Shown: positions 1,623-21,427 of the stretch, one piece after another
Layout of the letters: every line of letters starts with the position of its first letter
How positions within the stretch are numbered: position 1 is the first letter of the stretch
Assembly (NCBI GenBank): GCA_965230685.1
Contig: CBDDLO010000002.1
Coordinates: 5,133,106 to 5,197,105, forward strand
DNA: 64,000 nt
Source of the DNA: Bythopirellula sp.
GTDB taxonomy: Bacteria > Planctomycetota > Planctomycetia > Pirellulales > Lacipirellulaceae
Reading direction: 5' to 3'
Position numbers and translations under genes: made by a program
The notes under the pieces: generated by a model
The model's database searches: none
Told to the model about the DNA's origin: nothing
The model's input: only the letters and a program-made list of their open reading frames with translations

Positions 1623-2525
1623 TTACCACAGCTGGCTGCTTCGATCGAGGCTATTCACTTGCTTTCTCGGGACGCGCCTGCGTGGATGAAGGAACTCCCA
1701 TTTTTTGCTCCCGTCGACATCGACTTTTCCTGTACTACCCTCCACCTCGCGGCTGCCTTGAGATTTGATCGACTTGGATGGACTGGGCTGCGGAGGTGCG
1801 TTCACGACGGGCAATGGCGGCAAACGCGAGGGTAGGGGGGTGGTCACATCGGAACGCTGCAACTGGAAATCGACGGCGAAGCTATCGTGCGGAGAACTGT
1901 CCCATAAAACCGGTGCGGGCCGAGTGCGCAACTCGCTCAAAACTTGCTGCTTTCTCTTGACCTGGAACAGTTGTTCACCCACGATTGGCGTTTGTTGCTG
2001 CTGCAACCCGAATTGCTGCGTGGCGAGCATCACCAATTGAGTTGTGTCGCCAGTCGTGCCATGAAAGCCAATGCGTTCGACCCGACCGTCACGGCCGAAA
2101 AAGTAAGTCAACGAACCCGCCAGATCGTGCAACTGCGTTCCCGTGACAATTGGAACCCGGATCCCGAATTGGCCCAGTTCGGACAAGGCCGTCGATTTGC
2201 GTGCCCAGCGCTGGTACACCCACTCTTTAGTGACGTTCAGGTCAAAGACTTCCCGCAAAGACAATGCCGGCATGCCTTCCAGCGGGGTGATCGTCGGATA
2301 AACGGACGCCCCGGGACCTTGTGGCGAGGGCGGTTGACTTAGCCCCTGAGGACTGGAACTAAGCAGGCCAGATTTCGTGCTCGCGTAAGCTGTTGAAGCT
2401 GCTGAGGAAAAACCGTCGAACAAGCCATCCACGTTCGGCCCATTGCTGATGAGGTAGGGCACTCCCACGGCGGCGGCTAAGAGCACAGGCACTCGCAACA
2501 AGGAAAACATGGCAACCTTCCTCAC
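1623..2525 (-). CDS. Hypothetical secreted protein
   Basis: 300-aa ORF with a signal-like N-terminus (MRKVAMFSLLRVPVLLAAAVGVPYL) and Pro/Ser/Gln-rich segments. No family recognised. Confidence 0.5.
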   Translation of the reverse strand: MRKVAMFSLLRVPVLLAAAVGVPYLISNGPNVDGLFDGFSSAASTAYASTKSGLLSSSPQGLSQPPSPQGPGASVYPTITPLEGMPALSLREVFDLNVTKEWVYQRWARKSTALSELGQFGIRVPIVTGTQLHDLAGSLTYFFGRDGRVERIGFHGTTGDTTQLVMLATQQFGLQQQQTPIVGEQLFQVKRKQQVLSELRTRPAPVLWDSSPHDSFAVDFQLQRSDVTTPLPSRLPPLPVVNAPPQPSPSKSIKSQGSREVEGSTGKVDVDGSKKWEFLHPRRRVPRKQVNSLDRSSQLW

Positions 2526-2672
2526 GAAACAGAAACGGGGGAAGTGAACTGTCGGCCCAGCAACGATACAATGAAATGTTGGACGGAACGCAGCTCACCA
2601 CTTTTGAGTATCGACCGTAAGCGACAGGCAACTTGCCGCTTGTGCTGCCGCACGGAGCAGCTTGCTTGACGG

Positions 2673-3980
2673 GTGCCTACCGCACGTCCCCGGTATGCGG
2701 CTCAGCCGTTGCGAGTGGTGCCACTCAACGTACCATCCCCCGCAAGTAAGGCATCGTGGCAACACGATCTGACAACTTTGGCAGACCTTAGCGATTATGA
2801 GTGGTTGACGGGCGATGCGGCGAGCAAGCTGCTTAGCACTAGTGCGCTCGCTGGCGAACCGGTGCATCGTCAGCTCAATCATTTGCGAAAAACGATTTCC
2901 GCTGCCCGAGCCGGGTTGATCGTAGAACAATGGAAGCTGCGTAGCCGCGCAGCCTCGAAATTTGGCGAACTCGCAGCGAGCATGTACTTCACGGACCTTG
3001 CGCTACAACAGGCGACGGATATTTGGACCGCACGCTACAAAGCGTCTCGCATTTCCGAGGGCGTTTCGGTCATCGACTACTGCTGCGGGATCGGAGGAGA
3101 CTTGCTCGCCCTCGCCGAACGTGGACCGACGACGGGTTGGGATCGAATGCCAGAAATGGCTCTCTTGGCTCGCGCGAATTTGCGCGTGGCCCAATTGAAT
3201 GTGAACGGGATAGCTCGGGTCGGAGACGCGGAATCGCAAAGCCCTGCCCCAGACGAATTCTGGCATATCGATCCGGATCGCCGAGTTGATGGGCGGCGTT
3301 CTACGCAACTGCAATGGCATTCACCCGGCCCCGAGCTGGTTGAGCAGTGGCTCGCAATGAACCCCCAGGCCGCAATGAAACTCGCGCCCGCGACGATCGT
3401 GCCAGAGGCCTGGAGCGATCAAGCCATGCTGGAATGGATCAGCTTCCATCGCGCATGCCGCCAGCAAGTCGCCTGGTTTGGTGAACTTGCGGGTGCAAAC
3501 GAGGGACTCCGATGCGCCACGCGGCTGTCGAGAGACCCCACCGACGAGAGCCAACCTGTAGCTGCCTCGTTTGTCGGTAAGCCCGACGTGAGAGCTTCGT
3601 CGGCGAGCAAGGTCTCGAGTTACGTGTACGACACCGACCCTGCCCTCCGCGCCGCGGGGCTGGTGGAAGCCTTAGCAACCGAACTTGACCTGAGTGTGCT
3701 GGACCGCAGTCCTTCTTATCTCACTCACGAAGATGTGGTGCAGCATCCGTTGCTGACCTGTTTTGAAGTACTTGACCAATTGCCCCCGCGTATTGCGCCG
3801 CTTCTGAAACACCTGCGTGACAGGAATATAGGGAATCTGGAGATCAAAACACGTGGGGTGCATGCCGATCCAGAATGGTTGCGAAAGCAGCTCAAGCTAC
3901 GGGGTGACGAGTCTGCAACTCTACTTCACACGCGAATGGGAACTAGCGAAATCGCTCTGCTGGTTAAGCGCGTGGGGTAA
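2673..3980 (+). CDS. Class I SAM-dependent methyltransferase with THUMP-like C-terminal extension
   Basis: 435-aa ORF with a GTG start. The SAM motif I 'VIDYCCGIGGDLLALA' is preceded by 'LALQQATDIWTARYKA'. A long C-terminal domain follows, as in THUMP-like-domain methyltransferases. Confidence 0.65.
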   Translation: MPTARPRYAAQPLRVVPLNVPSPASKASWQHDLTTLADLSDYEWLTGDAASKLLSTSALAGEPVHRQLNHLRKTISAARAGLIVEQWKLRSRAASKFGELAASMYFTDLALQQATDIWTARYKASRISEGVSVIDYCCGIGGDLLALAERGPTTGWDRMPEMALLARANLRVAQLNVNGIARVGDAESQSPAPDEFWHIDPDRRVDGRRSTQLQWHSPGPELVEQWLAMNPQAAMKLAPATIVPEAWSDQAMLEWISFHRACRQQVAWFGELAGANEGLRCATRLSRDPTDESQPVAASFVGKPDVRASSASKVSSYVYDTDPALRAAGLVEALATELDLSVLDRSPSYLTHEDVVQHPLLTCFEVLDQLPPRIAPLLKHLRDRNIGNLEIKTRGVHADPEWLRKQLKLRGDESATLLHTRMGTSEIALLVKRVG

Positions 3981-4038
3981 CTCACGAGACAAAGACTGGC
4001 TAAGATAGGACAGTGACGATGTCCCTTGAATTCTGCTT

Positions 4039-4917
4039 TTGGAGCCCCAAGTGAAACTGGCATTCAGCTCGAACGCATATCTTCAGTTTTCCATCGAGGA
4101 AACGATTCGCCGCATCGCCGAGATCGGATACACCGGCATCGAGCTATTGGCCGATGTGCCGCACGCCTGGCCGGCGGGACTGCTCCCTGAGCAGCGTGAA
4201 GCGATTCGGCGTTGTCTCGATGAACATGGCCTGACAATCTCGAACATCAACGCGTTCATGATGAATGCCGTTGCCGACCCCCGCCAGCCCTATTGGCATC
4301 CCGGGTGGACCGACCCCGACCCGCATTACCGCGCGATTCGGCGCGAACACACCAAAAGAGCGTTGCAACTGGCCTGCGACCTTGGCGCTCCTCACATCAC
4401 CACCGAGCCAGGTGGATTGCTAGCGCCCGAGCAATCCTGGGAGCAAGGTGCCGACATCTTTTACGAAGAACTCATGCCCTGCGTTGAGGTTGCGGAAAAG
4501 CTGGGCGTTGGACTGTTAATCGAACCGGAGCCGGAACTCTTAATCGAGCGATTCGATCAATATTCACAATTTGCCGACCGCGTGGATAGCTCGGCGGTGG
4601 GTCTTAATTTCGACATTGGACATGCCTATTGCGTAAGCGAAGATCCGCAAGATTGGGTTGCGAAAATGCAAGCAGAAACGGTGCACTACCACTTGGAAGA
4701 TATCGCCGAGACGCGCGTCCATGCACATCTCATCCCTGGACATGGGGCGATTGACTTCGCCGCCACACTGCAAGCGATTGCCACGACGGACTACGACGGC
4801 TGGCTCACCGTGGAGCTGTATCCCTACATCGATTCTCCCGACGAAGCCGCTCGCGAAGCGAGGAACTATCTGCAACAAACGCTCACTCAGATCGGAGTTT
4901 CGGAGACTAGCGTTTAA
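4039..4917 (+). CDS. Xylose-isomerase-like TIM-barrel protein (sugar phosphate isomerase/epimerase family; EboE-like)
   Basis: 292-aa ORF starting at TTG 4039. An alternative GTG at 4051 would give MKLAFSSNAY. Fold signature present: GIELL, LLIEPEPE, NFDIGH, HLEDI, LTVELYP. Confidence 0.75.
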   Translation: MEPQVKLAFSSNAYLQFSIEETIRRIAEIGYTGIELLADVPHAWPAGLLPEQREAIRRCLDEHGLTISNINAFMMNAVADPRQPYWHPGWTDPDPHYRAIRREHTKRALQLACDLGAPHITTEPGGLLAPEQSWEQGADIFYEELMPCVEVAEKLGVGLLIEPEPELLIERFDQYSQFADRVDSSAVGLNFDIGHAYCVSEDPQDWVAKMQAETVHYHLEDIAETRVHAHLIPGHGAIDFAATLQAIATTDYDGWLTVELYPYIDSPDEAAREARNYLQQTLTQIGVSETSV

Positions 4918-5816
4918 TGGGTGACTCGCCTGCCGCCGCTTGGTGGCAATTGCTGCGCGCTGGGAATGTGTTCACCGCGATTTCCAACATCCTTGCCGGC
5001 TATGCACTCGCGCGAGGGGCTTGGTCGCCCGTGCTGCCGCTTGTGTTTCTCACGCTCGCTTCGGTGGCACTCTACCTCGCGGGCATGGTGCTGAATGATG
5101 TGTTCGATCTGGAACAAGACCGCCTCGAACGCCCCGAAAGGCCCCTACCCTCGGGGCGAATTGAACCTTGGCTCGCCAAGCTAGTTGGCTGGGGGCTGCT
5201 GGTAGATGGTCTGAGCGCCGCCGGGGTGGCGGCTTGGCTCTTATCAAGTTGGTATCCACTCGTGGTGGCGATCTTGCTGGCTATCTCCATTGTCGCCTAC
5301 GATGCGATATTGAAGAAATCTGCTGCCGGACCGTGGGCAATGGGCTTGTGCCGCGCGCTAAACGTCTTGCTCGGCGCGAGCGTGGTCAGTGACTCAGGCG
5401 ACCCCCGCGCCGCCTATCTCTACGCCTTCGCACTAGGGATGTACACGCTGGGCCTCACGCTCCTGGCTCGCAGGGAAGCTGAGCAAAGTAACGCAAGTGA
5501 CCTTCGAGTCGCAAGCTACGTGATCCAGCTAGGTACCCTAGCGATGCTACTACTGGCAACCGTACTCACGCTGCCACGATTCGGTTGGTTCGCGGCTTGG
5601 TTAATCTGTTTACTCGCGGTTCGAGTGCAGCTTTATGAAGCGATCGTCTGTCCTGAACCCAAAGTTGTCCAAAAATCGGTTGCTCGTTTGATCACCATGT
5701 TCATTCCACTCGATGCCCTCGCCTGCTCGGCCATTTCCGGCTGGGCAGCTGGCTTCGCAGTCCTCGCTTTGCTGCTCCCAACCTACGTTGCCACTCGCCG
5801 CGCTCCCATGACATAA
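4917..5816 (+). CDS. UbiA-superfamily prenyltransferase (EboC-like)
   Basis: 299 aa and hydrophobic throughout. Contains the Asp-rich motif NDVFDLEQDRLERPERPLPSGRI. The ATG overlaps the upstream stop (TAATG at 4915..4919). Confidence 0.8.
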   Translation: MGDSPAAAWWQLLRAGNVFTAISNILAGYALARGAWSPVLPLVFLTLASVALYLAGMVLNDVFDLEQDRLERPERPLPSGRIEPWLAKLVGWGLLVDGLSAAGVAAWLLSSWYPLVVAILLAISIVAYDAILKKSAAGPWAMGLCRALNVLLGASVVSDSGDPRAAYLYAFALGMYTLGLTLLARREAEQSNASDLRVASYVIQLGTLAMLLLATVLTLPRFGWFAAWLICLLAVRVQLYEAIVCPEPKVVQKSVARLITMFIPLDALACSAISGWAAGFAVLALLLPTYVATRRAPMT

Positions 5817-5863
5817 TGACATGAGCCAATGAAAGGCCAATCGCTAATAGCCAAGTAGACATC

Positions 5864-6694
5864 ATGCGCCTCGGTTACAACACGAACGGACTTGCTCATC
5901 ACAGCCTGCCGGCTGCTGTGCGGTTATTGGCTTCGTTGGGGTACGAAAGCGTGGCGATCTCCATCGACCACCACGCGCTCAATCCCTATGACGCGGGCCA
6001 AGACAGACGGCTGCAAGATATCCGCCAGATGCTCGAAGAGTTCCAACTGCGCTCAGTCATCGAGACGGGTGCCCGCTATCTACTCGACCCACGCAACAAA
6101 CACCAACCGACGCTCGTTTCGGCGAAGTCAGCAGGACGTCCCTTGCGCATCGAGTTCTTGCGCCATGCAGTCGACATGGCGGTCGCGCTGAGTAGCGATT
6201 GCGTTTCGCTCTGGTCCGGTGTCTTGCCACGAGAGGATTCGCGCGACGAGGGCATGCGTCGCCTTGTCGAGGGGCTGAGTATTGTCTTGGACTACGCCGA
6301 TCGGCGCGGCGTGCAAATCGGCTTCGAGCCCGAACCAGGAATGCTGATTGACACGATGGCCAGCTTCGCTGACTTGGTCGAGCAAGTTCCTTCACCACGT
6401 TTAGGACTGACGCTCGACATCGGCCATTTGCACTGCCTGGGCGAGCCGATCACTGAGACAATCCTCCACTGGTCCAATCGGCTGGTCAACGTGCATATCG
6501 AAGACATGTGCGTCGGTACTCACGAACACCTAATGTTCGGTGAAGGGGAGATTGATTTTCCCTCGGTGCTCACCGCACTCGAGTCCGTCCAGTACGCTGG
6601 CGGACTGCACGTAGAGCTGAGTCGCCACAGCCATGTCGGGCCCGAGGCGGCGCGGCAGGCCTACACTTTTCTCCATCCGATGCTTGGAAGCTAG
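5864..6694 (+). CDS. Second xylose-isomerase-like TIM-barrel protein
   Basis: 276 aa. Motifs LGYNTN, GFEPEPG, LDIGH, HIEDM and HVELS are present. It is a paralogous fold to the product of 4039..4917. Confidence 0.75.
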   Translation: MRLGYNTNGLAHHSLPAAVRLLASLGYESVAISIDHHALNPYDAGQDRRLQDIRQMLEEFQLRSVIETGARYLLDPRNKHQPTLVSAKSAGRPLRIEFLRHAVDMAVALSSDCVSLWSGVLPREDSRDEGMRRLVEGLSIVLDYADRRGVQIGFEPEPGMLIDTMASFADLVEQVPSPRLGLTLDIGHLHCLGEPITETILHWSNRLVNVHIEDMCVGTHEHLMFGEGEIDFPSVLTALESVQYAGGLHVELSRHSHVGPEAARQAYTFLHPMLGS

Positions 6695-6699
6695 CCACT

Positions 6700-8025
6700 A
6701 TGTCCGAACACGTTGTCCTTCTTTCGGTCCCTGGGTTACGCCAGCAGGACTTGGCTCACATGCCCAGCCTGAGTGCCTTGGTCTCCGAAGGTGATTGTGG
6801 GGAACTCGTGCCAAGTTTCCCTGCGGTGACCTGCCCAGTGCAAGCGAACATGACGACCGGCGCCCCCCCCTCGGAACACGGAGTCACCGCCAACGGATTC
6901 TACTGGCGAGAGCGGCAAGAGGTTGAAATGTGGACCTCGGCTAACGATTGCATCGCCAAACCGCAGCTGTGGGACCTGATGCATGCTCACGACCCCAAGC
7001 TCACCTCGGCGGTTTGGTTTCCGCTTCATAGCAAACAGTGCGGTGCGGACTATGTGTGCACCCCAGCACCAATTCACAACCCTGATGGCAGTGAATCACT
7101 TTGGTGCTACACACGTCCAGAGCCCCTGTACGGCGAATTCGTGGAAAAATTGGGGCACTTTCCGCTCCAGCATTTTTGGGGCCCAGCTTCCAATATCACC
7201 TCCACCGCTTGGATCGTGGACTCGGCCATACATGCCGCCGAACGTTTCCGCCCCAACCTTTTTTACGTTTACCTACCCCACTTGGACTACGCAGCGCAAA
7301 AAAACGGGCCTGACAGCGATGAAGCAATCCGCGCGCTTGGCGAACTTGACTTGGAGGTGGGAAAACTTGTCAAAGGATTTACTGACGCCTACGACCCTGC
7401 CCAGCTACTGTGGCTGGTGGCTAGTGAATATGTGATTACTCCCGTGGACCACGTCAGCTACCCCAACCGCCTCCTCCGCGAAGCGGGATTATTGGCAGTG
7501 TCTGAGGAAGCGGACGGAGAACATCTCGACCTTGCGGCGAGTCGAGCATGGGCGTTGGCCGACCATCAGTTCTCGCACATTTTCGTACAGCACCACGATG
7601 CCGCGACAATTCAGCAAGTCGCAAAACTGTTCGCAGAGCAGCCCGGCATTGCAGACATACTTACGCGACACCAATTCGGTCGTTATGATCTCGCACACGC
7701 AGATTGCGGTGACCTTGTGCTGATCTCTACAAGCAATAGCTGGCAAGCCTACTATTGGTGGCTCGACGATGCTCGGGCGCCAGGCTTTGCCCGCACCGTA
7801 GACATCCATCGCAAGCCCGGATACGACCCCGTCGAAATGTTTTGGGATCCCGTGGCGAAAGGCATTCCCCTCGACGCATCGCTGGTGCAGGGATCACACG
7901 GGGCGCCGGCGCTCCGTGACGACCAGCGAGGGGTGTTGCTCGCTTCAGAACGTGGCGTGTTTGTAGAGCGCCCTCTGGGCGACGTGGATGTAGCCGACAT
8001 CGTGCTGCGCCAGTTTGGCATTTAG
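6700..8025 (+). CDS. Alkaline-phosphatase-superfamily protein, type I phosphodiesterase/nucleotide pyrophosphatase-like (EboF-like)
   Basis: 441 aa. The N-terminus VVLLSVPGLRQQDL...FPAVTCPVQANMTTGAPPSEHGVTANGFY resembles the NPP/AP core, including the nucleophile Thr region. The gene starts 5 nt after the upstream stop. Confidence 0.7.
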   Translation: MSEHVVLLSVPGLRQQDLAHMPSLSALVSEGDCGELVPSFPAVTCPVQANMTTGAPPSEHGVTANGFYWRERQEVEMWTSANDCIAKPQLWDLMHAHDPKLTSAVWFPLHSKQCGADYVCTPAPIHNPDGSESLWCYTRPEPLYGEFVEKLGHFPLQHFWGPASNITSTAWIVDSAIHAAERFRPNLFYVYLPHLDYAAQKNGPDSDEAIRALGELDLEVGKLVKGFTDAYDPAQLLWLVASEYVITPVDHVSYPNRLLREAGLLAVSEEADGEHLDLAASRAWALADHQFSHIFVQHHDAATIQQVAKLFAEQPGIADILTRHQFGRYDLAHADCGDLVLISTSNSWQAYYWWLDDARAPGFARTVDIHRKPGYDPVEMFWDPVAKGIPLDASLVQGSHGAPALRDDQRGVLLASERGVFVERPLGDVDVADIVLRQFGI

Positions 8026-11000
8026 TGCCGCTCTTCCTCGACAAGCTCCACTTGCTGGTGCTGCGACTCCACGACTTGCCGCGCTGCATCCAGACCGAGG
8101 GTCCAGAAGAGCGCGGGGCGCACCAGGAACTCGAGCAGTGTGCTACTCACTAATCCACCGATGATGACGGTAGCCACCGGATAGAGAATTTCTTTGCCAG
8201 GCTCGCCAGCGGCCATGGCGAGTGGGACCAAACCGATGCCGGAAGTCAGCGCCGTCATCAGCACCGGGGCCAGCCGGTCCTTGCCCGCGCGGACGGCCAT
8301 TTCGCGGGTCCACCGTTCACCTTCGTATTTCACCAGGTGTAGGTAATGATTGATTAGCAAGATGCCATTACGCGACGCAATTCCGCAGAGCGAAATAAAA
8401 CCCACCATGCTAGCAATTGTCAGTGTTTGACCGGTGAGATATAGCGAAGCGACACTGCCTATGAATGCCATAGGCAAGGCGACCATGACCTGCAGTGCGA
8501 GGTTCGACGACTGAAACATCGAATACAACACCAAAAACATTCCCACGAGCGATGCCAAGAACAGCATCGAAATCACGCGGGAGGCCGTTTGTTGGCTCTC
8601 GAACTGCCCGCCATACTCCACGAAATAGCCCGTGGGTAGTTCTGCAATGATCGGTCGCAGTCGCTCCTTGATTTCTTCCACCACATCAACGAGTCCCCGC
8701 CCAGTGACATTGCACTGCACGACGATACGGCGACGCACTTGCTCGCGGTTGACCGTATTGGGACCTGCCGCCTGATAGATTCGCGCAACGTCTTCCAACT
8801 TCACTCGCCCTCCGGTGGGGAGTTCAATTTGCAATCGTTTTAGCGCCGCCAGGTCCTCGCGTGCCTCTTCTCCAAGGCGAACCAGCAAATCGAAAGTCCG
8901 TTGGCCATCAACCACCTGCGAAATGACTTCGCCTTGCATAGCGGTTTCGATAAATTCGTTGACATCGTTGCGGCGCAGGCCGTAGGACTTGAGCTTCTCG
9001 CCATTGGCTTCAATGCGTAACTGGGGCACGAGCGTTTGCTGTTCGACCTGTAGGCCGCGCACACCTTCGACATCTGCAATGGCTGCTTCGATGCCTTGCG
9101 CCTCACGACGCAGCACATCGAGATCGTCGCCGAAGAGCTTGATCGCTACTTGCGCCTTCACTCCGGAAAGCATGTGAGAAATCAGATGTGCCAGCGGCTG
9201 CTCGACCGAGCTGACAATTCCCGGCACATCGGCCAGCGCTGCGCTGATTTCTTCAATGAGCTCTTCGCGTGATCGCTGTGAATGCGAGGTTACCGTGGCA
9301 ACAAACTCGGTGACATTCACGCCTTCGGCATGTTCGTCAAGTTCCGCTCGACCTGTCTTGCGTACGATGGTCTGCAAGTCTTCGATTTGAGCAAGTCGCT
9401 GCTCGACGCGAGTGGCAATTTCTGTTGAGGTGGCCAGCGACGTCCCGGGCGGGAGCAACACATTGATCTGCACCGCTCCTTCATTGAACGGCGGCAGAAA
9501 GTCGTTTTCCATTCGCAGGAGTCCCCACGTCGTGACTCCAACTGCAATTGTGGCAATCAGCAAGATCAGCCTGGGGAATTGCAAGCTGAATTGAATCGCA
9601 CCGCCCGCGAGGCGTTTTAGCCCACGCAGCAGAAACCCGTCTCGCTCCTCACTGGCGAGGGTCGACCCGCTGAGTAACCAATAACTCAGCACGGGGGTCA
9701 CCGTCAGCGAGACTAACAGCGAGGAAGCGATGGAAACGATGTACGATATTCCCAGCGGCGTGAAAAGTCGGCCTTCCATACCAGTGAGGGCGAACAACGG
9801 CACAAACACCAGGATGACGATCATCGTGCCGTAGACGATGGAATTACGCACTTCCAGGCTCGCCTGATAGACGACCAACAGGGGATTGCGCGGTGACTTT
9901 GCAAGTCGGTTTTCACGCAATCGGCGAAAGATGTTCTCGACATCGACAATGGCATCGTCAACCAATTCGCCAATGGCCACAGCGATGCCCCCCAAGGTCA
10001 TCGTGTTCACCGAGAGGCCAAAAGCCGCGAAGACTATCGCAGTCACAACGATCGACAACGGAATTGCGGTCAACGTGATGAATGTCGTCCGCAGGTTCAT
10101 CAGAAACAAGAACAATATGACGATCACCAGCAACGCTCCATCACGAAGTGCTTCCACCACATTCTCGAACGCTAAGTCGATAAACTCCTTCTGTTGGTAG
10201 AGGTTCGGAACGACTCGGACGTCCTCAGGCAATGACGTGGCTAGTTCTGCGAGTGCAGCGGTAACTCGGTTGGTCACCTCGCGTGTGTCAGCGTCCGGTT
10301 GCCGCATGACGGTCAGCAGCACCGCGGGACTGCCGGTCATTTTACCCGATTCATCGCGCACCGAAGCCGCGCTGTTCCCCCGTTTGACTTGAGGCCCCGT
10401 TTCGACGCGCGCTACCTGCGCAAGTGTGAGTGATTGGCCTTCTCGTTGCTTGATGACGATATCTCGAATCTGCTCGATGGTTTTCACGCGTCCCAGGGAC
10501 CGGACCAACATTTCCTGTGGCCCCTGTTGGTCTAAGTATCCGCCCGCAGCATTTTGATTACTTTCCTCGAGCGCTTGTTTCACTTCATGCAAAGTCACTC
10601 CATACTGAACCAACAAATCGGGGTCGACGAGGACCTGAAACTGTTTCCGATCGCCACCCATGACAATCACTTGCGAAACTCCAGGAATCGTCAAGAGTCG
10701 CTGCCGCACAACCCAATCAGCCAGGGTGCGCAGTTCCATCGGCGAAGTCGTGTCGCCTGCCGTCATGCCGACAACAAGAATCTGTCCCATGATGGAAGAA
10801 ATTGGCATCAGCTGCGGCTTCACATCCGGTGGAAGCGACGCAGACGCCAGCGCCATCCGCTCGGCAACGATCTGGCGATTGTTGTAGATATCGGTCCCCC
10901 AGTCGAACTCCACATAAACCACCGATAAGCCCACGCCTGAGGTGCTACGCACGTCCTGCACACCTGTCGCTCCGTTGAGCACTGTCTCCAGCGGAAACGT

Positions 11001-11195
11001 GATCAGGGTCTCCACCTCCTCAGGAGCCATACCATGCGCTTCGGTCAACAGGACGACGCGTGGTCTGTTCAAATTAGGAAAGACATCCACCGGCAGGCGC
11101 AGCGCCTGCCAGGTTCCCACGAAAGTAAGAAACAGCGCAGCAACAATCACCAGAAGGCGATTCTGCAGCGAGAACTTGATGATGGCATTGAACAT
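8022..11195 (-). CDS. czcA: Heavy-metal efflux RND transporter, CusA/CzcA family
   Basis: 1057 aa. The N-terminus MFNAIIKFSLQNRLLVIVAALFLTFVGTWQALRLPVDVFPNL is typical of HME-RND pumps. It has a 12-TM architecture with two large periplasmic loops, and the adaptor and OMF genes lie upstream. Confidence 0.9.
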   Translation of the reverse strand: MFNAIIKFSLQNRLLVIVAALFLTFVGTWQALRLPVDVFPNLNRPRVVLLTEAHGMAPEEVETLITFPLETVLNGATGVQDVRSTSGVGLSVVYVEFDWGTDIYNNRQIVAERMALASASLPPDVKPQLMPISSIMGQILVVGMTAGDTTSPMELRTLADWVVRQRLLTIPGVSQVIVMGGDRKQFQVLVDPDLLVQYGVTLHEVKQALEESNQNAAGGYLDQQGPQEMLVRSLGRVKTIEQIRDIVIKQREGQSLTLAQVARVETGPQVKRGNSAASVRDESGKMTGSPAVLLTVMRQPDADTREVTNRVTAALAELATSLPEDVRVVPNLYQQKEFIDLAFENVVEALRDGALLVIVILFLFLMNLRTTFITLTAIPLSIVVTAIVFAAFGLSVNTMTLGGIAVAIGELVDDAIVDVENIFRRLRENRLAKSPRNPLLVVYQASLEVRNSIVYGTMIVILVFVPLFALTGMEGRLFTPLGISYIVSIASSLLVSLTVTPVLSYWLLSGSTLASEERDGFLLRGLKRLAGGAIQFSLQFPRLILLIATIAVGVTTWGLLRMENDFLPPFNEGAVQINVLLPPGTSLATSTEIATRVEQRLAQIEDLQTIVRKTGRAELDEHAEGVNVTEFVATVTSHSQRSREELIEEISAALADVPGIVSSVEQPLAHLISHMLSGVKAQVAIKLFGDDLDVLRREAQGIEAAIADVEGVRGLQVEQQTLVPQLRIEANGEKLKSYGLRRNDVNEFIETAMQGEVISQVVDGQRTFDLLVRLGEEAREDLAALKRLQIELPTGGRVKLEDVARIYQAAGPNTVNREQVRRRIVVQCNVTGRGLVDVVEEIKERLRPIIAELPTGYFVEYGGQFESQQTASRVISMLFLASLVGMFLVLYSMFQSSNLALQVMVALPMAFIGSVASLYLTGQTLTIASMVGFISLCGIASRNGILLINHYLHLVKYEGERWTREMAVRAGKDRLAPVLMTALTSGIGLVPLAMAAGEPGKEILYPVATVIIGGLVSSTLLEFLVRPALFWTLGLDAARQVVESQHQQVELVEEERH

Positions 11196-11216
11196 TGATT
11201 AGATCAAAAAATGTTT

Positions 11217-12593
11217 TCAGTGGTTGTGGCCTGCGTGAGGGTCGGCCCCTCCACCCGCTTGGTTCTTCAACGAGAGGTGAATTTGGTAGGCCCCTTTCCC
11301 GGCGATGACGTTGCCAAACTTGAGTGCGCCGTCGCTTGCCACGACAATCTCATCTCGATCGCGGTGCAGCACGTGAACCGCCACTCGGTCAAAATGGTCT
11401 CCGTGTTGGTGATAGACGTAGGCCTCGGCGCCCTCATCCACCACAGCCGTAGCAGGCAACACAAGTTGATTTTCCCAAGTCTCGACCGGCACCTGGACCT
11501 GCATCCGCTGCCCCGGCTTGTAGAGCCACTCCACAAAGCGTTTGCCAGAAGTTGACGTTTTATCCGCGGCAAGTTTGTTAGGCAAACGCAGGTAAACCTT
11601 GAAGGCCCGAGAATCAGCGTCAATCTGGTCGGCGACATAGAGCACCTCGAGTCCAGTGACAGGAGCGTCCTGGCTCGATCCGCTCAAACGCCGCGCAACG
11701 ATCTCACGATTGGCTTCCGATGCCTGGCGAATTGCAAGCGCGTCATCTTCGAATGCCATGGCCTCGATCAGCAGTTCGCAGTGATCCCCAAGCACAGCCA
11801 ACGGACTGCCTGCTTCAACCTGCTGACCTTGTGCAACGTTTAGTTTCTGAACTTGATAAGGGTGTTCGCTAGCGCAACCCTGGTCGTGATTATCGTGGTC
11901 TGGAGTGCGTATTTCGATTTCCTGGAACAAGCGGCGCGTTCTACGAATTTCATCCACTTGAGCTTGGGCTAGTCCATGCAGGAGCATTGCCTGCGCCTCA
12001 GCGTGAAGAGAAGCCATGAGCTTCTGTTGTTCGTACTCTTGCTCGAGGATTCGCCGCCCGGCAATCACTCCTTCGCCGAGTGAGCGAAGCCTCTTTATTT
12101 CTCGGTTAACGACTTCGAGATTTTCGACATTCCGCAAGTACTCGCGCTGCGCCTCAACCAAATCTTCATGCGTTAGCTGCACCTTAAATATCAGCCGATC
12201 GGGATCGACGGCCTCACCTGTGATCGCGTTGATCTTGGTTACTGTACCCGTGAGCGGTGTGGATAAATGCAACTGCGAGCGTCCTGGGCTCTCCACAACT
12301 ATTGCCGGCAAAGTCAGCATCCGCTGATAGTCCATCGGCTCGACCACGAACGGCTCGAAACCAATGTTCTTGAGGCCGCGCTCGCTGAGCGCGATCACGT
12401 TTCCAGCTCCATGTTGCTCGTGATCATGCGATTTTTCTTGCGCATGTTGATCCAGCTTGTCGAGAATACTCGTTGGCCCGTCCGACGTCTCAAGCGGATA
12501 CCAGGAGCCCTTGGTAAGCACCGCCCCCGCGATGGCCAGGACCAACAGCCCTATCCACAATGGATTCTTATTTGAAGAACTACTATTTTTCAT
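11217..12593 (-). CDS. czcB: Efflux RND periplasmic adaptor (membrane fusion protein, CzcB/CusB-like)
   Basis: 458 aa with an N-terminal TM segment and a coiled-coil hairpin plus beta-barrel pattern. His-rich segments (HDHEQHGAG and the C-terminal GGGADPHAGHNH) suggest metal handling. It lies directly upstream of the RND pump. Confidence 0.8.
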   Translation of the reverse strand: MKNSSSSNKNPLWIGLLVLAIAGAVLTKGSWYPLETSDGPTSILDKLDQHAQEKSHDHEQHGAGNVIALSERGLKNIGFEPFVVEPMDYQRMLTLPAIVVESPGRSQLHLSTPLTGTVTKINAITGEAVDPDRLIFKVQLTHEDLVEAQREYLRNVENLEVVNREIKRLRSLGEGVIAGRRILEQEYEQQKLMASLHAEAQAMLLHGLAQAQVDEIRRTRRLFQEIEIRTPDHDNHDQGCASEHPYQVQKLNVAQGQQVEAGSPLAVLGDHCELLIEAMAFEDDALAIRQASEANREIVARRLSGSSQDAPVTGLEVLYVADQIDADSRAFKVYLRLPNKLAADKTSTSGKRFVEWLYKPGQRMQVQVPVETWENQLVLPATAVVDEGAEAYVYHQHGDHFDRVAVHVLHRDRDEIVVASDGALKFGNVIAGKGAYQIHLSLKNQAGGGADPHAGHNH

Positions 12594-12716
12594 TGAAGAC
12601 TCTCAAGAGCGGCTACCACAAAGTGCCCTTGCATTGATGGGTAAACACCAATGCCACTGGAAGACAATAAGCTCAGAAGAGCTGCCAAATCGACAGCTCG
12701 AGCGGAAGATGTAGAC

Positions 12717-13118
12717 TCAAAGCAGCAAGACTGAGATTGCAAGGTGCGCGCGCAGCCCCACCGAAAGCGATAAGTCAACCCTATAGGATCCACCGTAGAA
12801 CTTAGGGCTAGCAACATCGAAAGGAGCAATTACTACCGGTATGCAGGCAACCGCCAAGTATGAATTGCAATCCTTTACTACTCCGCGCGATGAGCCCCCA
12901 AGCCACTTGCAATCACAATGGCTGTCTTCACACGGCGCCGCTGGAACCGAATGCCGCGGCTGTTGGCCGTGGCTTGCTGTGCAGCCTGTTGTGTGGGACG
13001 CGTCAGATCGTGCAACCTCCGCATCCTGATAAGCCATCGCACAGGCCGAGTGTTCGCAACCCAGCAATGCATGGGTCAACACGGCGGCTGCAATCATACT
13101 ACGGACAACGTATTGCAT
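12717..13118 (-). CDS. Small Cys/His-rich putative periplasmic protein inside the czc operon (speculative)
   Basis: 133-aa ORF between the OMF and adaptor genes. It has a signal-like start (MIAAAVLTHALLGC) followed by CEHSAC...HTTGC...CEDSHCDC. No family recognised, and the coding status is uncertain. Confidence 0.3.
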   Translation of the reverse strand: MQYVVRSMIAAAVLTHALLGCEHSACAMAYQDAEVARSDASHTTGCTASHGQQPRHSVPAAPCEDSHCDCKWLGGSSRGVVKDCNSYLAVACIPVVIAPFDVASPKFYGGSYRVDLSLSVGLRAHLAISVLLL

Positions 13119-13224
13119 AGAAAAAAATGTTCGCGAAGCCAGAAGCTGAATCAGAATCGGGTAGCCCCTACTATTATCAGTTTACTTCACTCTCAGACAT
13201 TGGCCAGTGCAGCTTTTCTGCTGA

Positions 13225-14613
13225 TTAGCTGCTCAGAGGGCTATTGGCCTCAAAACTACCGTCGAGCAACAATCCCTCGATACGCAAATAGCTATTCCAG
13301 AGTTTCGACAGTGCGTCTAGATATGCTAGATGCGTCTGGGAGTAAATCCGTTGGGCAGTCAGGAAATCGAGATACCCGACCTCGCCTTGGGCGTAGCCTT
13401 GACGTACTAGTTCGAGTGTTCGCTCGGAGCGAGTGAGAATTTGGTCGGCATAAGTCTGTGCGGTGATCCGCGCGTCGGAGAACTCACGAAATGCGTTTAC
13501 CAATCGCCGCTGCAGGTTTTTTTCCACTCGATCAACATTGCGGGCCGCCTGGGTGACCTCTGCACGTGCGCGGCAGATACCGCCTTGATTGCGATTCCAG
13601 AGTGGTAGGGGAACACTTATCTGCACCCCCGTTAGCGTATCGCCATTGGAATCGTCGTGCTGAACGCTCACTTGTGCGCTGACATTGGGCACCGCCTCGA
13701 CACATTCGCGATGGAGCACCCGGCGACTTCGTTCGACCTGGGCCATCGCTGAGGCGAGTTCGGGGCTTGCAATTTGGACCTGCAATAATTGCTCTTCGTA
13801 GCTCAAGAGATCAGGCAGCTGGCCGACATCGCCCTCAAGAGGTTGCTGCACCAGGACTTCGCTGCCCACAAGCGTTTGTAACTGCCGCCAAGCTTGGTCG
13901 TATCCATTACGGCTCGTGCGCTCTAGGAGTTTGGCATTCTCGAGTTGCAGCTCGGTTTGCAGCAGGCCGGCTAGCGGAATTTCTTCGGCCTCGATCAGCG
14001 ACTGCGACGTTTTCGTGGCTTCGTCGGCAATGCGAACTAGATCTGCGGAGAAACGCCTGCGCTGTTGGGCCAAGAGGGCTTGATAGTACCCCAGACGAAC
14101 GTCGGTTCGCACTCGCTGAACGATCGTTGCCAACTCCTGCTCGGAGGCTGCGATCTCGGCACAAACAATCGCCCGGTTGCGCTGCAACTTCTTGGCAGTA
14201 ATGAACTGTTGTCCCGCAAAGCCACCCTGCTGCCCCGCGGACCCGTCTGCGCCAATCTCTGAGGCTAAATATCCGACCGTCGGATTCGGCGCGAGCCCCA
14301 CTTGCTTCCACTTCCCGTCGAGCGCACGCAGGCGAGCTTGGGCTTGGGCAATGGCGGGGTGGTTGGCCAATGCCAGTTCCTCAACAGTAGCGAGAGAGAG
14401 CCCCATCGAAAGAGGGAGTGTCTCCTCTGAGCTGACTTCCTCTGAGCTGACTTCCTCTGGAACATAGGGCAGGGGCACACCCACCGACTCTGCCAAGCTG
14501 CTCGGCTGCGTCACCACGGGCGTCGATTCATCGCCCTGGGCGCACTGCGCAGGTTGGACTGCTAGGCATGCCAGCAGCAATGCCATCGGTGCCAAATTGT
14601 TCCAATACTCCAT
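13225..14613 (-). CDS. czcC: TolC-family outer membrane efflux protein (CzcC-like)
   Basis: The ORF spans 13225..14661. The likely start is ATG 14613 (MEYWNNLAPMALLLACLAVQPAQC, a signal peptide). It shows two OEP-type repeats and is the first gene of the czcCBA-like operon. Confidence 0.8.
   Translation of the reverse strand: MEYWNNLAPMALLLACLAVQPAQCAQGDESTPVVTQPSSLAESVGVPLPYVPEEVSSEEVSSEETLPLSMGLSLATVEELALANHPAIAQAQARLRALDGKWKQVGLAPNPTVGYLASEIGADGSAGQQGGFAGQQFITAKKLQRNRAIVCAEIAASEQELATIVQRVRTDVRLGYYQALLAQQRRRFSADLVRIADEATKTSQSLIEAEEIPLAGLLQTELQLENAKLLERTSRNGYDQAWRQLQTLVGSEVLVQQPLEGDVGQLPDLLSYEEQLLQVQIASPELASAMAQVERSRRVLHRECVEAVPNVSAQVSVQHDDSNGDTLTGVQISVPLPLWNRNQGGICRARAEVTQAARNVDRVEKNLQRRLVNAFREFSDARITAQTYADQILTRSERTLELVRQGYAQGEVGYLDFLTAQRIYSQTHLAYLDALSKLWNSYLRIEGLLLDGSFEANSPLSS
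14423..14459. repeat. 15-bp tandem repeat (about 2.5 copies of tcctctgagctgact) inside czcC
   Basis: Read directly from the sequence. It encodes the duplicated EEVSS EEVSS in the OMF N-terminal linker. Confidence 0.8.
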
Positions 14614-14862
14614 TCGTCTGCCATCCTTGTCTGATCCACCTGTTTTATCGGCTTTCTCCACTGTGGAACACGAGCCAGTGGCTCTGTTGTCTGAAGCAAC
14701 GCTTGATGGACGGCGAGCTGGGTAAACTGCGCCAAGCTAGCGTGAGAATCCAACAAACACTTTGCATCGATACCGAAGTAGAGAGAAGTGACGCGACTGC
14801 TTGCTGAGCTTAAGGGTCACTCGCGATGTATCCCCCACGAATCTCCACCGAGAATCTCTCCC

Positions 14863-16077
14863 ATGAAACTTCCGCTTCGTAAAATGACTGTTTTCTTGCT
14901 AGCAATCGCTCTGCTGCATACTCAATCATCTGAGGCAAGTGCGGCTGGAGGTTTGGTGCCGGGTACGGGAACGCTGATCGACTACGTCGGGGACAATTTT
15001 GAGGATCCCTCATGGTCGTTCGTACACAACTTGCCTAAGAGCTCCCGAGAACAAGACGAACGGCTCCGATCGCCGACGGGAAAATCGACCAACGGTCGCT
15101 GGATCGAAGGCCCCGAGCGCGGTCATCCCGATCACATGAAAGTTGTGAAGAATCCCTCCGGTGCGTTGCCCGGTAGTGAATATGGGTTGCTAGTGCGAAC
15201 GCTGAACTCTGGTATTCCCGGCTATCGGTCGAACGACGTGCAACAAGACGACCTCATTGCCAACTGCATTTCGCGTTTGGGAATGAGCATTCCCGTGCGT
15301 GACATGCCCAGTGCCGTCGTACGAGTTTACTTGCCGCCGGCCGACCAATGGGAAAATCGCACAGGGCCACAATTCGGTTTTCGCATCAGCACTTCGACCA
15401 CTGTCACGGAGCTGGCCTCGCCGGGTCGCGGCTTCTTTTCGAGTTCTCGCACAACGACCAAACAAGAACCCTACTGGCCAGGACTGTGGATCCATTTCAA
15501 GAGCGAGACCAGTCGCAACGTGGAAGAAGACTCGGCGTTCTTGGCCTATCGTGGCAATCGCCAAGGTCGTGATATACGCTGCAAGGAGATCACCGCTGAC
15601 CAATTTGGCTGGTGGACTCTTGGAATCTCTGTGACCGGCGACGGGCAGATTCACTATTATGCCAAGCAAGGCGTGGAAGATCTCACTGCGGCTGATCATA
15701 TCACTTCGCAGTTCCCCTACAGTTTTCACGCGGAGCGGTTCCGCACGTTTTTCTTCAACGCTTGCAACAAGAACAATGGCAAGAGCTGGTCCACGCCCTT
15801 TATCATCGACGACCCGCAACTGTTCGTGGTTAACAGCTCGCAAGTGCTGGCCAACGTAAAGCGCAAGCAACAGCAAGAAGCCAACCGCAAAGCCCAGCGT
15901 GCTCGGCGCACCGCGCGGCGATCAAGCAAACAGACTGCGAGCAAGAATGCTAGCCAAGCGAAGTCGAACAGCAGTACCGCGTTGGCTACGGACCAAGCTT
16001 CCTCGAGTACTTCTCCAAAGTCCACTCAAACGGATTTCGCAAGTAAGCCCAAACTCAAAACCAATCTTGTACGCTAG
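14863..16077 (+). CDS. Hypothetical secreted protein with Lys/Ser/Ala/Gln-rich basic C-terminal tail
   Basis: The ORF spans 14788..16077. The probable start is Met at 14863 (MKLPLRKMTVFLLAIALLHTQSSEASA, a signal peptide). The globular body is followed by the tail KRKQQQEANRKAQRARRTARRSSKQ. Confidence 0.55.
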   Translation: MKLPLRKMTVFLLAIALLHTQSSEASAAGGLVPGTGTLIDYVGDNFEDPSWSFVHNLPKSSREQDERLRSPTGKSTNGRWIEGPERGHPDHMKVVKNPSGALPGSEYGLLVRTLNSGIPGYRSNDVQQDDLIANCISRLGMSIPVRDMPSAVVRVYLPPADQWENRTGPQFGFRISTSTTVTELASPGRGFFSSSRTTTKQEPYWPGLWIHFKSETSRNVEEDSAFLAYRGNRQGRDIRCKEITADQFGWWTLGISVTGDGQIHYYAKQGVEDLTAADHITSQFPYSFHAERFRTFFFNACNKNNGKSWSTPFIIDDPQLFVVNSSQVLANVKRKQQQEANRKAQRARRTARRSSKQTASKNASQAKSNSSTALATDQASSSTSPKSTQTDFASKPKLKTNLVR

Positions 16078-18378: not shown

Positions 18379-18402
18379 GACCTGCCGCCAGAAGAAAGAT
18401 CA
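18372..18402 (-). promoter_or_regulatory. In-frame UGA followed by a SECIS-like hairpin (candidate selenocysteine recoding signal)
   Basis: The minus strand reads TGA tctttcttctg GCGGCA-GGUCG-UGUCGC. That is an 11-nt spacer followed by a 17-nt hairpin with a 6-bp stem (one G-U pair) and a 5-nt GGUCG loop. Confidence 0.45.
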
Positions 18403-20590: not shown

Positions 20591-21427
20591 CTACTCGCAA
20601 CTATCTAGTACGCCTAGTTCCGGAGGGTCGAAAACGAACCCGTCGCTTTGTCTGAAAAACTCGACGGGGTTGTCGTAGACAACGCGGCGGATAAGGTGTT
20701 CCGGGTGGCCGCGACGGCGCATTTCAAGGATAAAATCGGGGACTGCTGTTGGTTTCGATGGTCCCCAGTCGCCGGCGGAATTTACAAGCAGCCGCTCGGG
20801 GCCGTACATCTCGACCATGTCAACCGCTCGCGCTGGCGTGCACTTGCTCACAGGATAGAGCGTCATACCCGCCCAAAAACCAGCGTCTAGCACAGGCCCA
20901 ACGGTGTGTTCTTCGACATGATCGACTAGCACCCGGCTACGGTCAATGCGACTGTCATCGGTCAGCATGTCAAGAATCATCCGCGTGCCCTGGTGCTTGT
21001 CCTCGAGATGGGGCGTATGGATGAGAATTTGCTCGTCGGTACGCATGGCTAAGTCGAGATGCTCGAGAAACACGATCGACTCGTTGCGCGTGTTCTTATT
21101 CAACCCAATCTCGCCAATCCCCAGCACGCCAGGTCGATCGAGGAACTCGGGAATCATGGCAATCACTTCCCGCGAAAGGGCAACATTCTCTGCCTCCTTG
21201 GCATTGATGCACAGCCACGTGAAATGTTGGATTCCGTAGTCAGCGGCGCGCTGCATCTCGAAGCTAGTGAGCTGCTCGAAATAGTCGCGAAATCCCTCGA
21301 CACTGCCTCGATCGTATCCCGCCCAAAACGCGGGCTCGCTGACCGCGACGCACCCCATTTTGGCTAGTGTCTCGTAGTCGTCGGTGGTGCGCGAGACCAT
21401 GTGAATATGAGGGTCGATGTAGTACAT
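20591..21427 (-). CDS. TatD-related metal-dependent hydrolase (amidohydrolase fold)
   Basis: 278 aa. The N-terminal metal motif is YIDPHIHM, followed by GEIGLN, IHTPH and DH motifs spaced as in the TatD family. Confidence 0.65.

Follow-up and report, generated by a model that had tools for sequence, protein, structure and literature searches.

In the current analysis we have examined a stretch of 64,000 nucleotides from the planctomycete Bythopirellula sp. (Pirellulales, Lacipirellulaceae; assembly GCA_965230685.1, contig CBDDLO010000002.1, positions 5,133,106 to 5,197,105), referred to below as the window, in which four adjacent genes encode two TIM barrels, a UbiA-family prenyltransferase and a phosphodiesterase (PDE). 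These genes belong to the ebo family of clusters, as a sequence-only reading of the same DNA had proposed: the prenyltransferase is EboC-like, the PDE carries the EboF signature, an EboB-like TatD gene is encoded further along the window and the gene order is conserved among relatives. The gene set is fairly likely to represent an ebo variant of the thallusin (meroterpenoid) type that works without EboD, EboA and a canonical EboE and whose product would be saccharoquinoline, thallusin or a close analogue. The variant is probably complete, and its closest kin is the inositol-type cluster of Actinomycetota.

The ebo genes, which are among the most widespread of the "orphan" biosynthetic sets, were defined by Yurchenko et al. 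2016 (PMC5133447), who reported that in their three planctomycetes the genes are unclustered and eboD is mostly missing. EboC homologues are reported to farnesylate 8-hydroxyquinaldic acid (PMC9235831). The sequence-only reading regarded the product of the cluster as still unknown, a statement overtaken by the preprint of Kallscheuer et al. 2026 (10.64898/2026.05.21.724671), which ties the ebo genes to thallusin. In its account the occurrence of the ebo genes in 35 strains follows their production of thallusin, the planctomycete Stieleria maiorica no longer makes thallusin once eboB, eboC, eboE or eboF is deleted singly, L-aspartate is built into the molecule, and EboC homologues of three phyla, including one from the planctomycete Stieleria neptunia, farnesylate hydroxyquinaldic acids. 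The preprint also describes an Actinomycetota type of cluster in which ino1-3 replace eboD and one host of which, Saccharomonospora, makes thallusin; it extends the range of ebo core genes and of producers far outside marine habitats, and presents the planctomycete ebo genes as unclustered and the producers as carrying eboD. To this picture the current analysis adds counts of complementary gene occurrence, the orthology of one of the two barrels with an actinobacterial barrel, the family-wide loss of an aspartate from the PDE metal site and the insertion history of eboB.

The genes assigned to the system, the last of them tentatively, are the following.

4039-4917, + strand: TIM1, xylose-isomerase-like TIM-barrel protein of 292 aa with a TTG start (PF01261, 146 bits)
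4917-5816, + strand: UbiA, EboC-like prenyltransferase of 299 aa (PF01040, 76 bits)
5864-6694, + strand: TIM2, xylose-isomerase-like TIM-barrel protein of 276 aa (PF01261, 137 bits)
6700-8025, + strand: PDE, EboF-type phosphodiesterase of the alkaline-phosphatase superfamily, 441 aa (PF01663, 152 bits)
20591-21427, - strand: TatD-fold hydrolase, EboB-type (PF01026, 26 bits; cut-off 27)
1746144-1747487 of the same contig (C2), 3.4 Mb from the operon: inositol-3-phosphate synthase (MIPS)

The first four are present in the list of open reading frames as the sequence-only reading gave them, and their families are borne out by Pfam. The TIM1/UbiA junction at 4915-4919 is a TAATG stop/start with an overlap of 1 nt, and TIM2 and PDE are separated by the 5 nt "ccact" at 6695-6699; both junctions are read directly from the sequence and indicate translational coupling. 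The motifs NDVFDLEQD of UbiA and SVPGLR of PDE are both found in the translations. Since the orthologues of TIM1 mostly begin to align at its residue 4-5, the true start of this gene may be the GTG at 4051 instead of the TTG at 4039. A promoter and terminator scan of 2400-8400 gave matches at the level of chance (2 promoter-like against 2.0 expected, 6 terminator-like against 5.8). A search for sequencing runs gave three DNA data sets of one study and none of RNA.

The assignment of UbiA rests on its best NCBIfam families, which are EboC (185.4 bits, cut-off 250) and then the SCO3242 family (161.2 bits, cut-off 260). It lies outside all the housekeeping clades considered, namely those of MenA, UbiA, CyoE and DGGGP synthase, its scores against quinone, heme, chlorophyll and ether-lipid enzymes being 79 bits or less (cut-offs 180-494), with heme O synthase at 39 bits. 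The genome encodes three UbiA-family proteins, and the other two occupy these housekeeping places: a heme O synthase (CtaB) whose gene adjoins that of cytochrome oxidase subunit III, and an MqnP-like protein, passing the general UbiA-like model alone (266 bits) and falling below the MqnP cut-offs, whose gene stands beside MqnE, UbiX and a MenG/UbiE methyltransferase. The proposal that the prenyltransferase of the operon is EboC-like and is no quinone or heme enzyme is thus supported. That it misses the EboC cut-off carries little weight, because the cut-off of 250 bits is too strict for Planctomycetota, as judged from the UbiA protein inside a bona fide planctomycete ebo cluster, which scores 143.6 bits on the EboC model while the EboE (361 bits) and EboD-type cyclase (479 bits) of that cluster are both above cut-off. 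Of 301 Planctomycetota genomes, 206 have an EboC match at E <= 1e-20 and none reaches the cut-off. Actinobacterial members of the SCO3242 family score 266-401 bits on their own model (NF045897). In an alignment of nine EboC-like rows (a CtaB row, in the wrong frame, being ignored) the first motif of the NDxxDxxxD type is kept in all nine, exactly in six, and in UbiA and most of the nine the second Asp-rich motif is replaced by R-x-E at the position seen in MqnP.

Conservation of gene order among relatives, whose contexts were read from tblastn matches and Pfam, had been named as a check by the sequence-only reading and is observed at several depths. The order TIM1-UbiA-TIM2-PDE is kept in 8 of 10 loci of the same genus, and partial forms (TIM1-UbiA-PDE, TIM1-UbiA-TIM2, TIM1-UbiA and UbiA alone) occur in other families. 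A PDE-alignment scan of GTDB species genomes returned 590 relatives, and among the best 80 loci, on which all PDE-anchored counts are based, the full order is present in 14, including Adhaeretor mobilis, three Botrimarina, a Lacipirellula metagenome-assembled genome (MAG) and three Kuenenia MAGs. It is thus shared by isolates of Lacipirellulaceae, other Pirellulales and Kuenenia MAGs. The published description of planctomycete ebo genes as unclustered therefore needs to be qualified, since it fails for Lacipirellulaceae and the Kuenenia MAGs. Within the genus, identity is far higher for TIM1 (78-87%), TatD (83-92%) and PDE (70-78%) than for the methyltransferase, DUF6690 and GNAT genes that flank the cluster (42-64%).

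The two TIM barrels and the missing ebo genes

The sequence-only reading saw no EboD or EboA in the window, and their absence extends to the whole genome, which is 94.5% complete. A model search of the genome for EboA gave no match, the positive control, an actinobacterial genome (G369), scoring 168.5 bits. The single 3-dehydroquinate (DHQ)-synthase-like gene reaches 213.8 bits on the EboD-type model NF004852 (cut-off 333), on which the true EboD-type genes of four relatives score 473-494 bits. For EboE (NF035939, about 380 aa) the best match in the genome is TIM1 itself, with 25-26 bits (26.4 in the direct comparison) where 250 are required, and a tblastn search with a true EboE gave no match in the genome at E 1e-4. 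The description of the cluster as reduced is overstated: EboB is present, moved off by insertions, and the ring precursor can plausibly come from a MIPS whose gene lies elsewhere in the genome.

The two barrels had been taken for a duplicated EboE. Neither part of that view holds. TIM1 is far from the EboE cut-off and TIM2 has no match on the EboE model, and the two share 27.6% identity and fall into separate clades. The ordinary isomerase families also fit poorly, the matches of the barrels to the IolO, IolE and L-ribulose-5-phosphate 3-epimerase models amounting to 54-64 bits where the cut-offs are 200-317. A sequence search of the PDB with both barrels gave the uncharacterised MJ1311 (3wqo) as the best match.

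We propose that TIM1 is a stand-in for EboE, that is, a replacement and no member of the EboE family. It is 68-87% identical in 35 relatives. In a maximum-likelihood tree TIM1 falls on the EboE side of a split (97/99) from TIM2 and four other PF01261 paralogues of the same genome; these paralogues, used as outgroups, are few and long-branched, and one very long, perhaps mis-framed actinobacterial IolE-like row was left out, so that the placement is only suggestive. The residues E-P-E-P, D..H, H-x-H and E are invariant in TIM1, TIM2 and EboE alike. The positions of the genes correspond as well: a Nitrososphaera MAG has the order TatD-TIM1-UbiA-PDE and a Solirubrobacteraceae MAG the order TatD-EboE-UbiA-PDE. 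In the genomes with TIM1, weak matches to the EboE model land on TIM1 itself.

The distribution of the genes was followed in 41 genomes, namely the present one, 24 relatives from its own genus and 16 from other families of the order. UbiA is encoded in 39 of the 41 genomes, TIM1 in 36, TIM2 in 30, MIPS in 27, an EboD-type cyclase above cut-off in four and a true EboE in two. Genomes mostly hold TIM1 or a true EboE, and rarely both. In nine further genomes the two never meet: four have TIM1 only (Adhaeretor mobilis, a Kuenenia MAG, a Nitrososphaera MAG and a "Rhodopirellula" MAG) and five EboE only (Planctomicrobium SH664, strain SH248, a Blastopirellula MAG, G110 and G259). A second complementarity is seen between TIM2 and EboD, which occur together in none of the 41 genomes (30 with TIM2, four with EboD, seven with neither). 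MIPS follows TIM2, being present in 25 of the 30 TIM2 genomes, in two of the 11 without TIM2 and in none of the four with EboD. These four EboD-type Pirellulales genomes (G027, G031, G034, G038) carry TIM1 and no EboE. Among the PDE-anchored loci TIM2 stands beside the PDE gene in 31 of the 80 and a DHQ-synthase-like gene is found in the fetched flank of none of these 31, and the five loci with a DHQ-synthase-like gene are all devoid of TIM1 and TIM2.

Eight of 201 sampled Actinomycetota genomes have a true SCO3242-family prenyltransferase (loci L168-L175), and all eight loci read, by tblastn order, MIPS - UbiA - TIM2 orthologue - EboA - TatD - EboE - PDE. The family identities were checked in one of them, L168 (SCO3242 401 bits, EboA domain 167, EboE 424). 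In each of the eight, the barrel next to the prenyltransferase shares 42-50% identity with TIM2, and the planctomycete TIM2 proteins and the actinobacterial barrels form one clade with a support of 100/99 in the maximum-likelihood tree. By these comparisons TIM2 is orthologous to the barrel that neighbours the prenyltransferase in the inositol-type ebo clusters of Actinomycetota, the type that the preprint describes with ino1-3 and no eboD, and it may correspond to Ino2 or Ino3 of that work. The MIPS of the genome is 42-47% identical to the clustered actinobacterial MIPS proteins. Its gene is unlinked here, whereas MIPS adjoins UbiA in all eight actinobacterial loci and in the planctomycete G110.

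In G110, a complete genome from another order of the same class which has a true EboE and no TIM1, the genes for MIPS and an EboC-like UbiA (L060, 7998-10120) lie on one strand and overlap by 4 nt, with a phosphoglucomutase gene before the pair and an MFS transporter gene after it. In Bythopirellula a class I/II aminotransferase gene (286 bits; L176, 5850-7163) is divergently adjacent to the only MIPS gene. It deserves mention since the ring nitrogen of thallusin comes from aspartate, and it may be a housekeeping gene.

The phosphodiesterase and the TatD gene

The EboF-like character of PDE had been proposed from the combination of genes and is now seen in its motifs. The protein shares 35-40% identity with PDEs from canonical ebo clusters that carry the DHQ-synthase-like cyclase, and it has all the signature motifs common to the 14 EboF-type proteins compared: T44 (the Thr nucleophile), HLDYxxQ, S(E/D)Y, DHQxxH, (D/E)IH(R/N)KPGYDP and G(S/T)HG. 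These 14 proteins come from Lacipirellulaceae, Kuenenia, Nitrososphaera, Thermoproteota, Chthoniobacterales, Desulfobacteraceae, Victivallales, Solirubrobacteraceae, Rivularia, three other Actinomycetota and the planctomycete G259.

The sequence-only reading had pointed to SVPGLR as lacking a metal-binding Asp and hence to an atypical active site. In a HMMER alignment with the Xanthomonas NPP (PDB 2gsn) the Pro of SVPGLR does face the Asp of "SIDGLR", so that the site is atypical with respect to NPP. It is not peculiar to this locus, since the position is occupied by Pro, Val or Ala in all 14 EboF-type proteins and by Asp in none. The metal-site residues of the Xanthomonas enzyme, which we take to be D54, T90, D210, H214, D257, H258 and H363, correspond in PDE to Pro, Thr, Asp, Gln, Glu, Tyr and His, respectively, according to the 2gsn and family alignments. 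PDE thus shares with NPP the PF01663 fold family and the Thr nucleophile, retains a single Asp and a single His among the metal ligands, and differs in three canonical ligands (Asp to Pro, His to Gln, His to Tyr), differences that are common to the EboF family. This pattern fits a metal site remodelled across the whole family and is unlike that expected of a dead enzyme.

The three replacements, at D54, H214 and H258 in the NPP numbering, could also mean that EboF-type PDEs have lost the canonical NPP/alkaline-phosphatase metal ligands and persist as non-catalytic scaffolds. Such a role is improbable: the Thr nucleophile, D196, H400 and the positions of DHQxxH and DIHxKPGYDP are kept in all 14 proteins across phyla, PDE remains 70-78% identical within the genus, and deletion of eboF is reported to abolish thallusin (10.64898/2026.05.21.724671).

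A TatD-fold gene 12.5 kb away had been noted as EboB-like, and there is no NCBIfam model for EboB by which to judge it. When the genome was searched by tblastn with an ebo-cluster TatD (that of G259), this gene alone matched (39.5% identity, E 2.7e-61). Its product shares 62% identity with the TatD that a Solirubrobacteraceae MAG encodes in a canonical DHQS-TatD-EboE-UbiA-PDE cluster, and it is 81-92% identical in most Pirellulales loci. In eight loci of the same genus it lies about 1.2-2.2 kb from the PDE gene, in the order PDE, a conserved secreted protein, TatD on the opposite strand and a HEAT-repeat gene, all within about 3 kb. Two blocks intervene between PDE and TatD in the present genome, an efflux operon at 8022-14661 and a pair of TPR/AhpC and FG-GAP genes at 16132-20478. 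On this comparison the TatD protein is a true EboB, whose gene has been displaced from the operon by two insertions that the eight loci do not have.

Proposed pathway and competing explanations

Based on these comparisons the following route is suggested. The unlinked inositol-3-phosphate synthase would turn glucose-6-phosphate into a cyclitol phosphate. TIM2, as a metal-dependent barrel of the isomerase or dehydratase type, may then help to form the deoxy-inosose that EboD supplies in canonical clusters. EboB, TIM1 in place of EboE, and the EboF-type PDE would convert the cyclitol and L-aspartate into a hydroxylated ring resembling quinaldic acid, and the EboC-like UbiA would attach a prenyl group to this ring in the membrane, with farnesyl diphosphate as the probable donor. 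Such a route is expected to end in saccharoquinoline, thallusin or a close analogue, the best guess being thallusin or a closely related farnesyl-quinoline.

Compared with canonical eboABCDEF, which is known from Bacteroidota, Cyanobacteria and eustigmatophyte plastids and has eboB, eboC, eboE and eboF as core genes and eboA and eboD as accessory ones, the cluster is similar in its EboC-like UbiA, EboF-type PDE and EboB-type TatD, in the barrel directly upstream of the prenyltransferase and in its tight packing. It differs in having no EboA, no EboD and no EboE that passes the model, in the 290-aa TIM1 in the place of EboE, in the additional barrel TIM2 between eboC and eboF and in the distance of eboB. 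With the inositol type of Actinomycetota it shares the lack of EboD, a TIM2-type barrel right after the prenyltransferase and a MIPS-type enzyme; those clusters, however, keep EboA, a true EboE and an in-cluster MIPS, whereas here MIPS is unlinked, EboA is missing, TIM1 stands for EboE and UbiA reaches 161 bits on the SCO3242 model where the cut-off is 260. The scattered ebo genes reported for Pirellulaceae (Stieleria, Rhodopirellula) are of the same phylum and likewise come without eboA; in the present genome four genes are joined in an operon and eboD is missing.

If this assignment is right, Bythopirellula presents a natural swap in which EboD gives way to MIPS and TIM2, and an EboE of 380 aa to a barrel of 290 aa, which would narrow the chemistry required of each step. 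The cultured isolates with the operon, Adhaeretor mobilis and Botrimarina, are tractable for such work.

Several observations weigh against the proposed route. The preprint names eboE as a core gene, and this genome is devoid of a true EboE. The equation of TIM2 with Ino2 or Ino3 is ours, and the unlinked MIPS may serve other inositol needs and is undetected in five of the 30 TIM2 genomes. Two genomes (G016 and G028) hold TIM1 together with EboE. The source of the ring is not fully explained by "TIM2 or EboD", because seven of the 41 genomes have neither and six of these seven still have UbiA. The genomes counted are kin and are therefore non-independent samples. Finally, the presence of the cluster in MAGs of anammox Kuenenia and soil Nitrososphaera is odd for a seaweed morphogen.

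With such hosts one may ask which role the product plays where no algae are involved. Kuenenia MAGs L095, L098 and L149 carry the full TIM1-UbiA-TIM2-PDE order, Nitrososphaera-type MAGs L119 and L131 and the Thermoproteota MAG L128 are also among the hosts, and the order TatD-TIM1-UbiA-PDE is that of an ammonia-oxidising archaeal MAG. Hosts of this kind are unexpected for a pathway known from algal symbionts, and they leave room for a different or additional role.

It is conceivable, and we consider it rather unlikely, that the cluster is an ebo relative with a product other than thallusin, namely a different prenylated cyclitol-derived compound, such as a membrane-anchored metal chelator or a redox-active lipid, with a role in the cell physiology of Planctomycetota and some archaea. 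The breadth of EboC-like genes in Planctomycetota, the conservation of TIM1, TatD and PDE well above that of the flanking genes, the Kuenenia and Nitrososphaera hosts and the replacement of two canonical enzymes at once, EboE and EboD, are in keeping with such a product. It is opposed by the preprint (10.64898/2026.05.21.724671), in whose account farnesylation of quinolines is common to EboC homologues of three phyla including a planctomycete one, planctomycete ebo deletions abolish thallusin, and core genes and producers extend well past marine habitats, and by the fact that TIM2 has its orthologue in the Actinomycetota type of cluster, which belongs, according to the preprint, to the thallusin producer Saccharomonospora.

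More speculative still is the idea that TIM1-eboC-TIM2-eboF, with eboB and MIPS, forms an independent minimal route to a farnesylated quinoline-type metabolite that serves the producer itself, and we regard it as doubtful. The metabolite might then act in iron handling, in membrane redox or as a signal molecule in organisms without an algal tie, for example Kuenenia, Lacipirellulaceae and Nitrososphaera. Were this true, TIM1 would be a stripped-down EboE and could reveal the reaction of that enzyme.

That four unrelated housekeeping genes, a quinone or heme prenyltransferase, catabolic sugar isomerases and a phosphatase, simply lie side by side is very improbable: the weak matches of the barrels to sugar-isomerase models, which would speak for it, are far under the cut-offs, CtaB and MqnP are encoded elsewhere in the genome, and the genes are translationally coupled and travel together across phyla and domains, a synteny that contradicts a housekeeping reading.

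Neighbouring genes and distant EboC-like loci

The remaining features considered in the window are the following.

2673-3980, + strand: SAM-methyltransferase with a C-terminal THUMP-like domain (Thump_like 57.8 bits, weak methyltransferase matches)
8022-14661, - strand: RND / membrane-fusion / outer-membrane-factor efflux operon (Pfam ACR_tran 858 bits, HlyD_D23, OEP)
14788-16077, + strand: protein of 429 aa with no Pfam or NCBIfam family
16132-20478, between the PDE and TatD genes: TPR/AhpC gene and FG-GAP gene

The THUMP-like methyltransferase lies directly upstream of TIM1 on the same strand, as the sequence-only reading had stated. It is present upstream of TIM1 in 8 of 10 loci of the same genus and in seven of the 80 PDE-anchored loci (among them Adhaeretor, three Botrimarina and the MAGs L080 and L085), and is absent from the Kuenenia and Nitrososphaera loci, so that it is chiefly a neighbour in loci of the Lacipirellulaceae type and in a few others of Pirellulales. 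Within the genus it is 48-58% identical, against 78-87% for TIM1. Its membership in the pathway is doubtful and was rejected as unsupported, the gene being a lineage-restricted and poorly conserved neighbour. Within the genus it holds its position, as do the DUF6690 and GNAT genes that lie further upstream.

The efflux pump was also considered as a member of the pathway and rejected. Searches for RND, MFP and OEP matches beside the cluster gave none in the loci of 20 relatives or in the 80 PDE-anchored loci, and the operon is left out of the system because no relative carries the pump at this place. The stop of its RND reading frame, which is of the AcrB family, overlaps the convergent stop of PDE by 4 nt, and the GC content drops from about 0.58 to 0.52-0.55 across the block.

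The 429-aa protein has, by eye, a signal-peptide-like N-terminus and a Lys/Ser/Gln-rich tail. In 9 of 10 loci of the same genus its gene follows that of PDE directly (55-76% identity), and it was not seen in other families.

Other settings of EboC-like genes have been observed in distant loci. In the locus L071 (7913-9949, genome G131) an open reading frame of 678 aa seems to fuse an EboC-like N-terminal half (tblastn 38%, residues 9-187) with a VCA0040-like domain of the "undecaprenyl phosphate translocase-like" kind (235 bits); a GDP-mannose-dehydratase-like epimerase gene is adjacent, and the neighbourhood of L072 is similar. In L073 and L077, from the distant planctomycetes G134 and G139, the EboC-like gene stands beside dxr (DXP reductoisomerase), in L073 also with a PDZ-bearing M50 protease of the RseP type; the dxr setting is an isoprenoid-precursor neighbourhood and no ebo neighbourhood.

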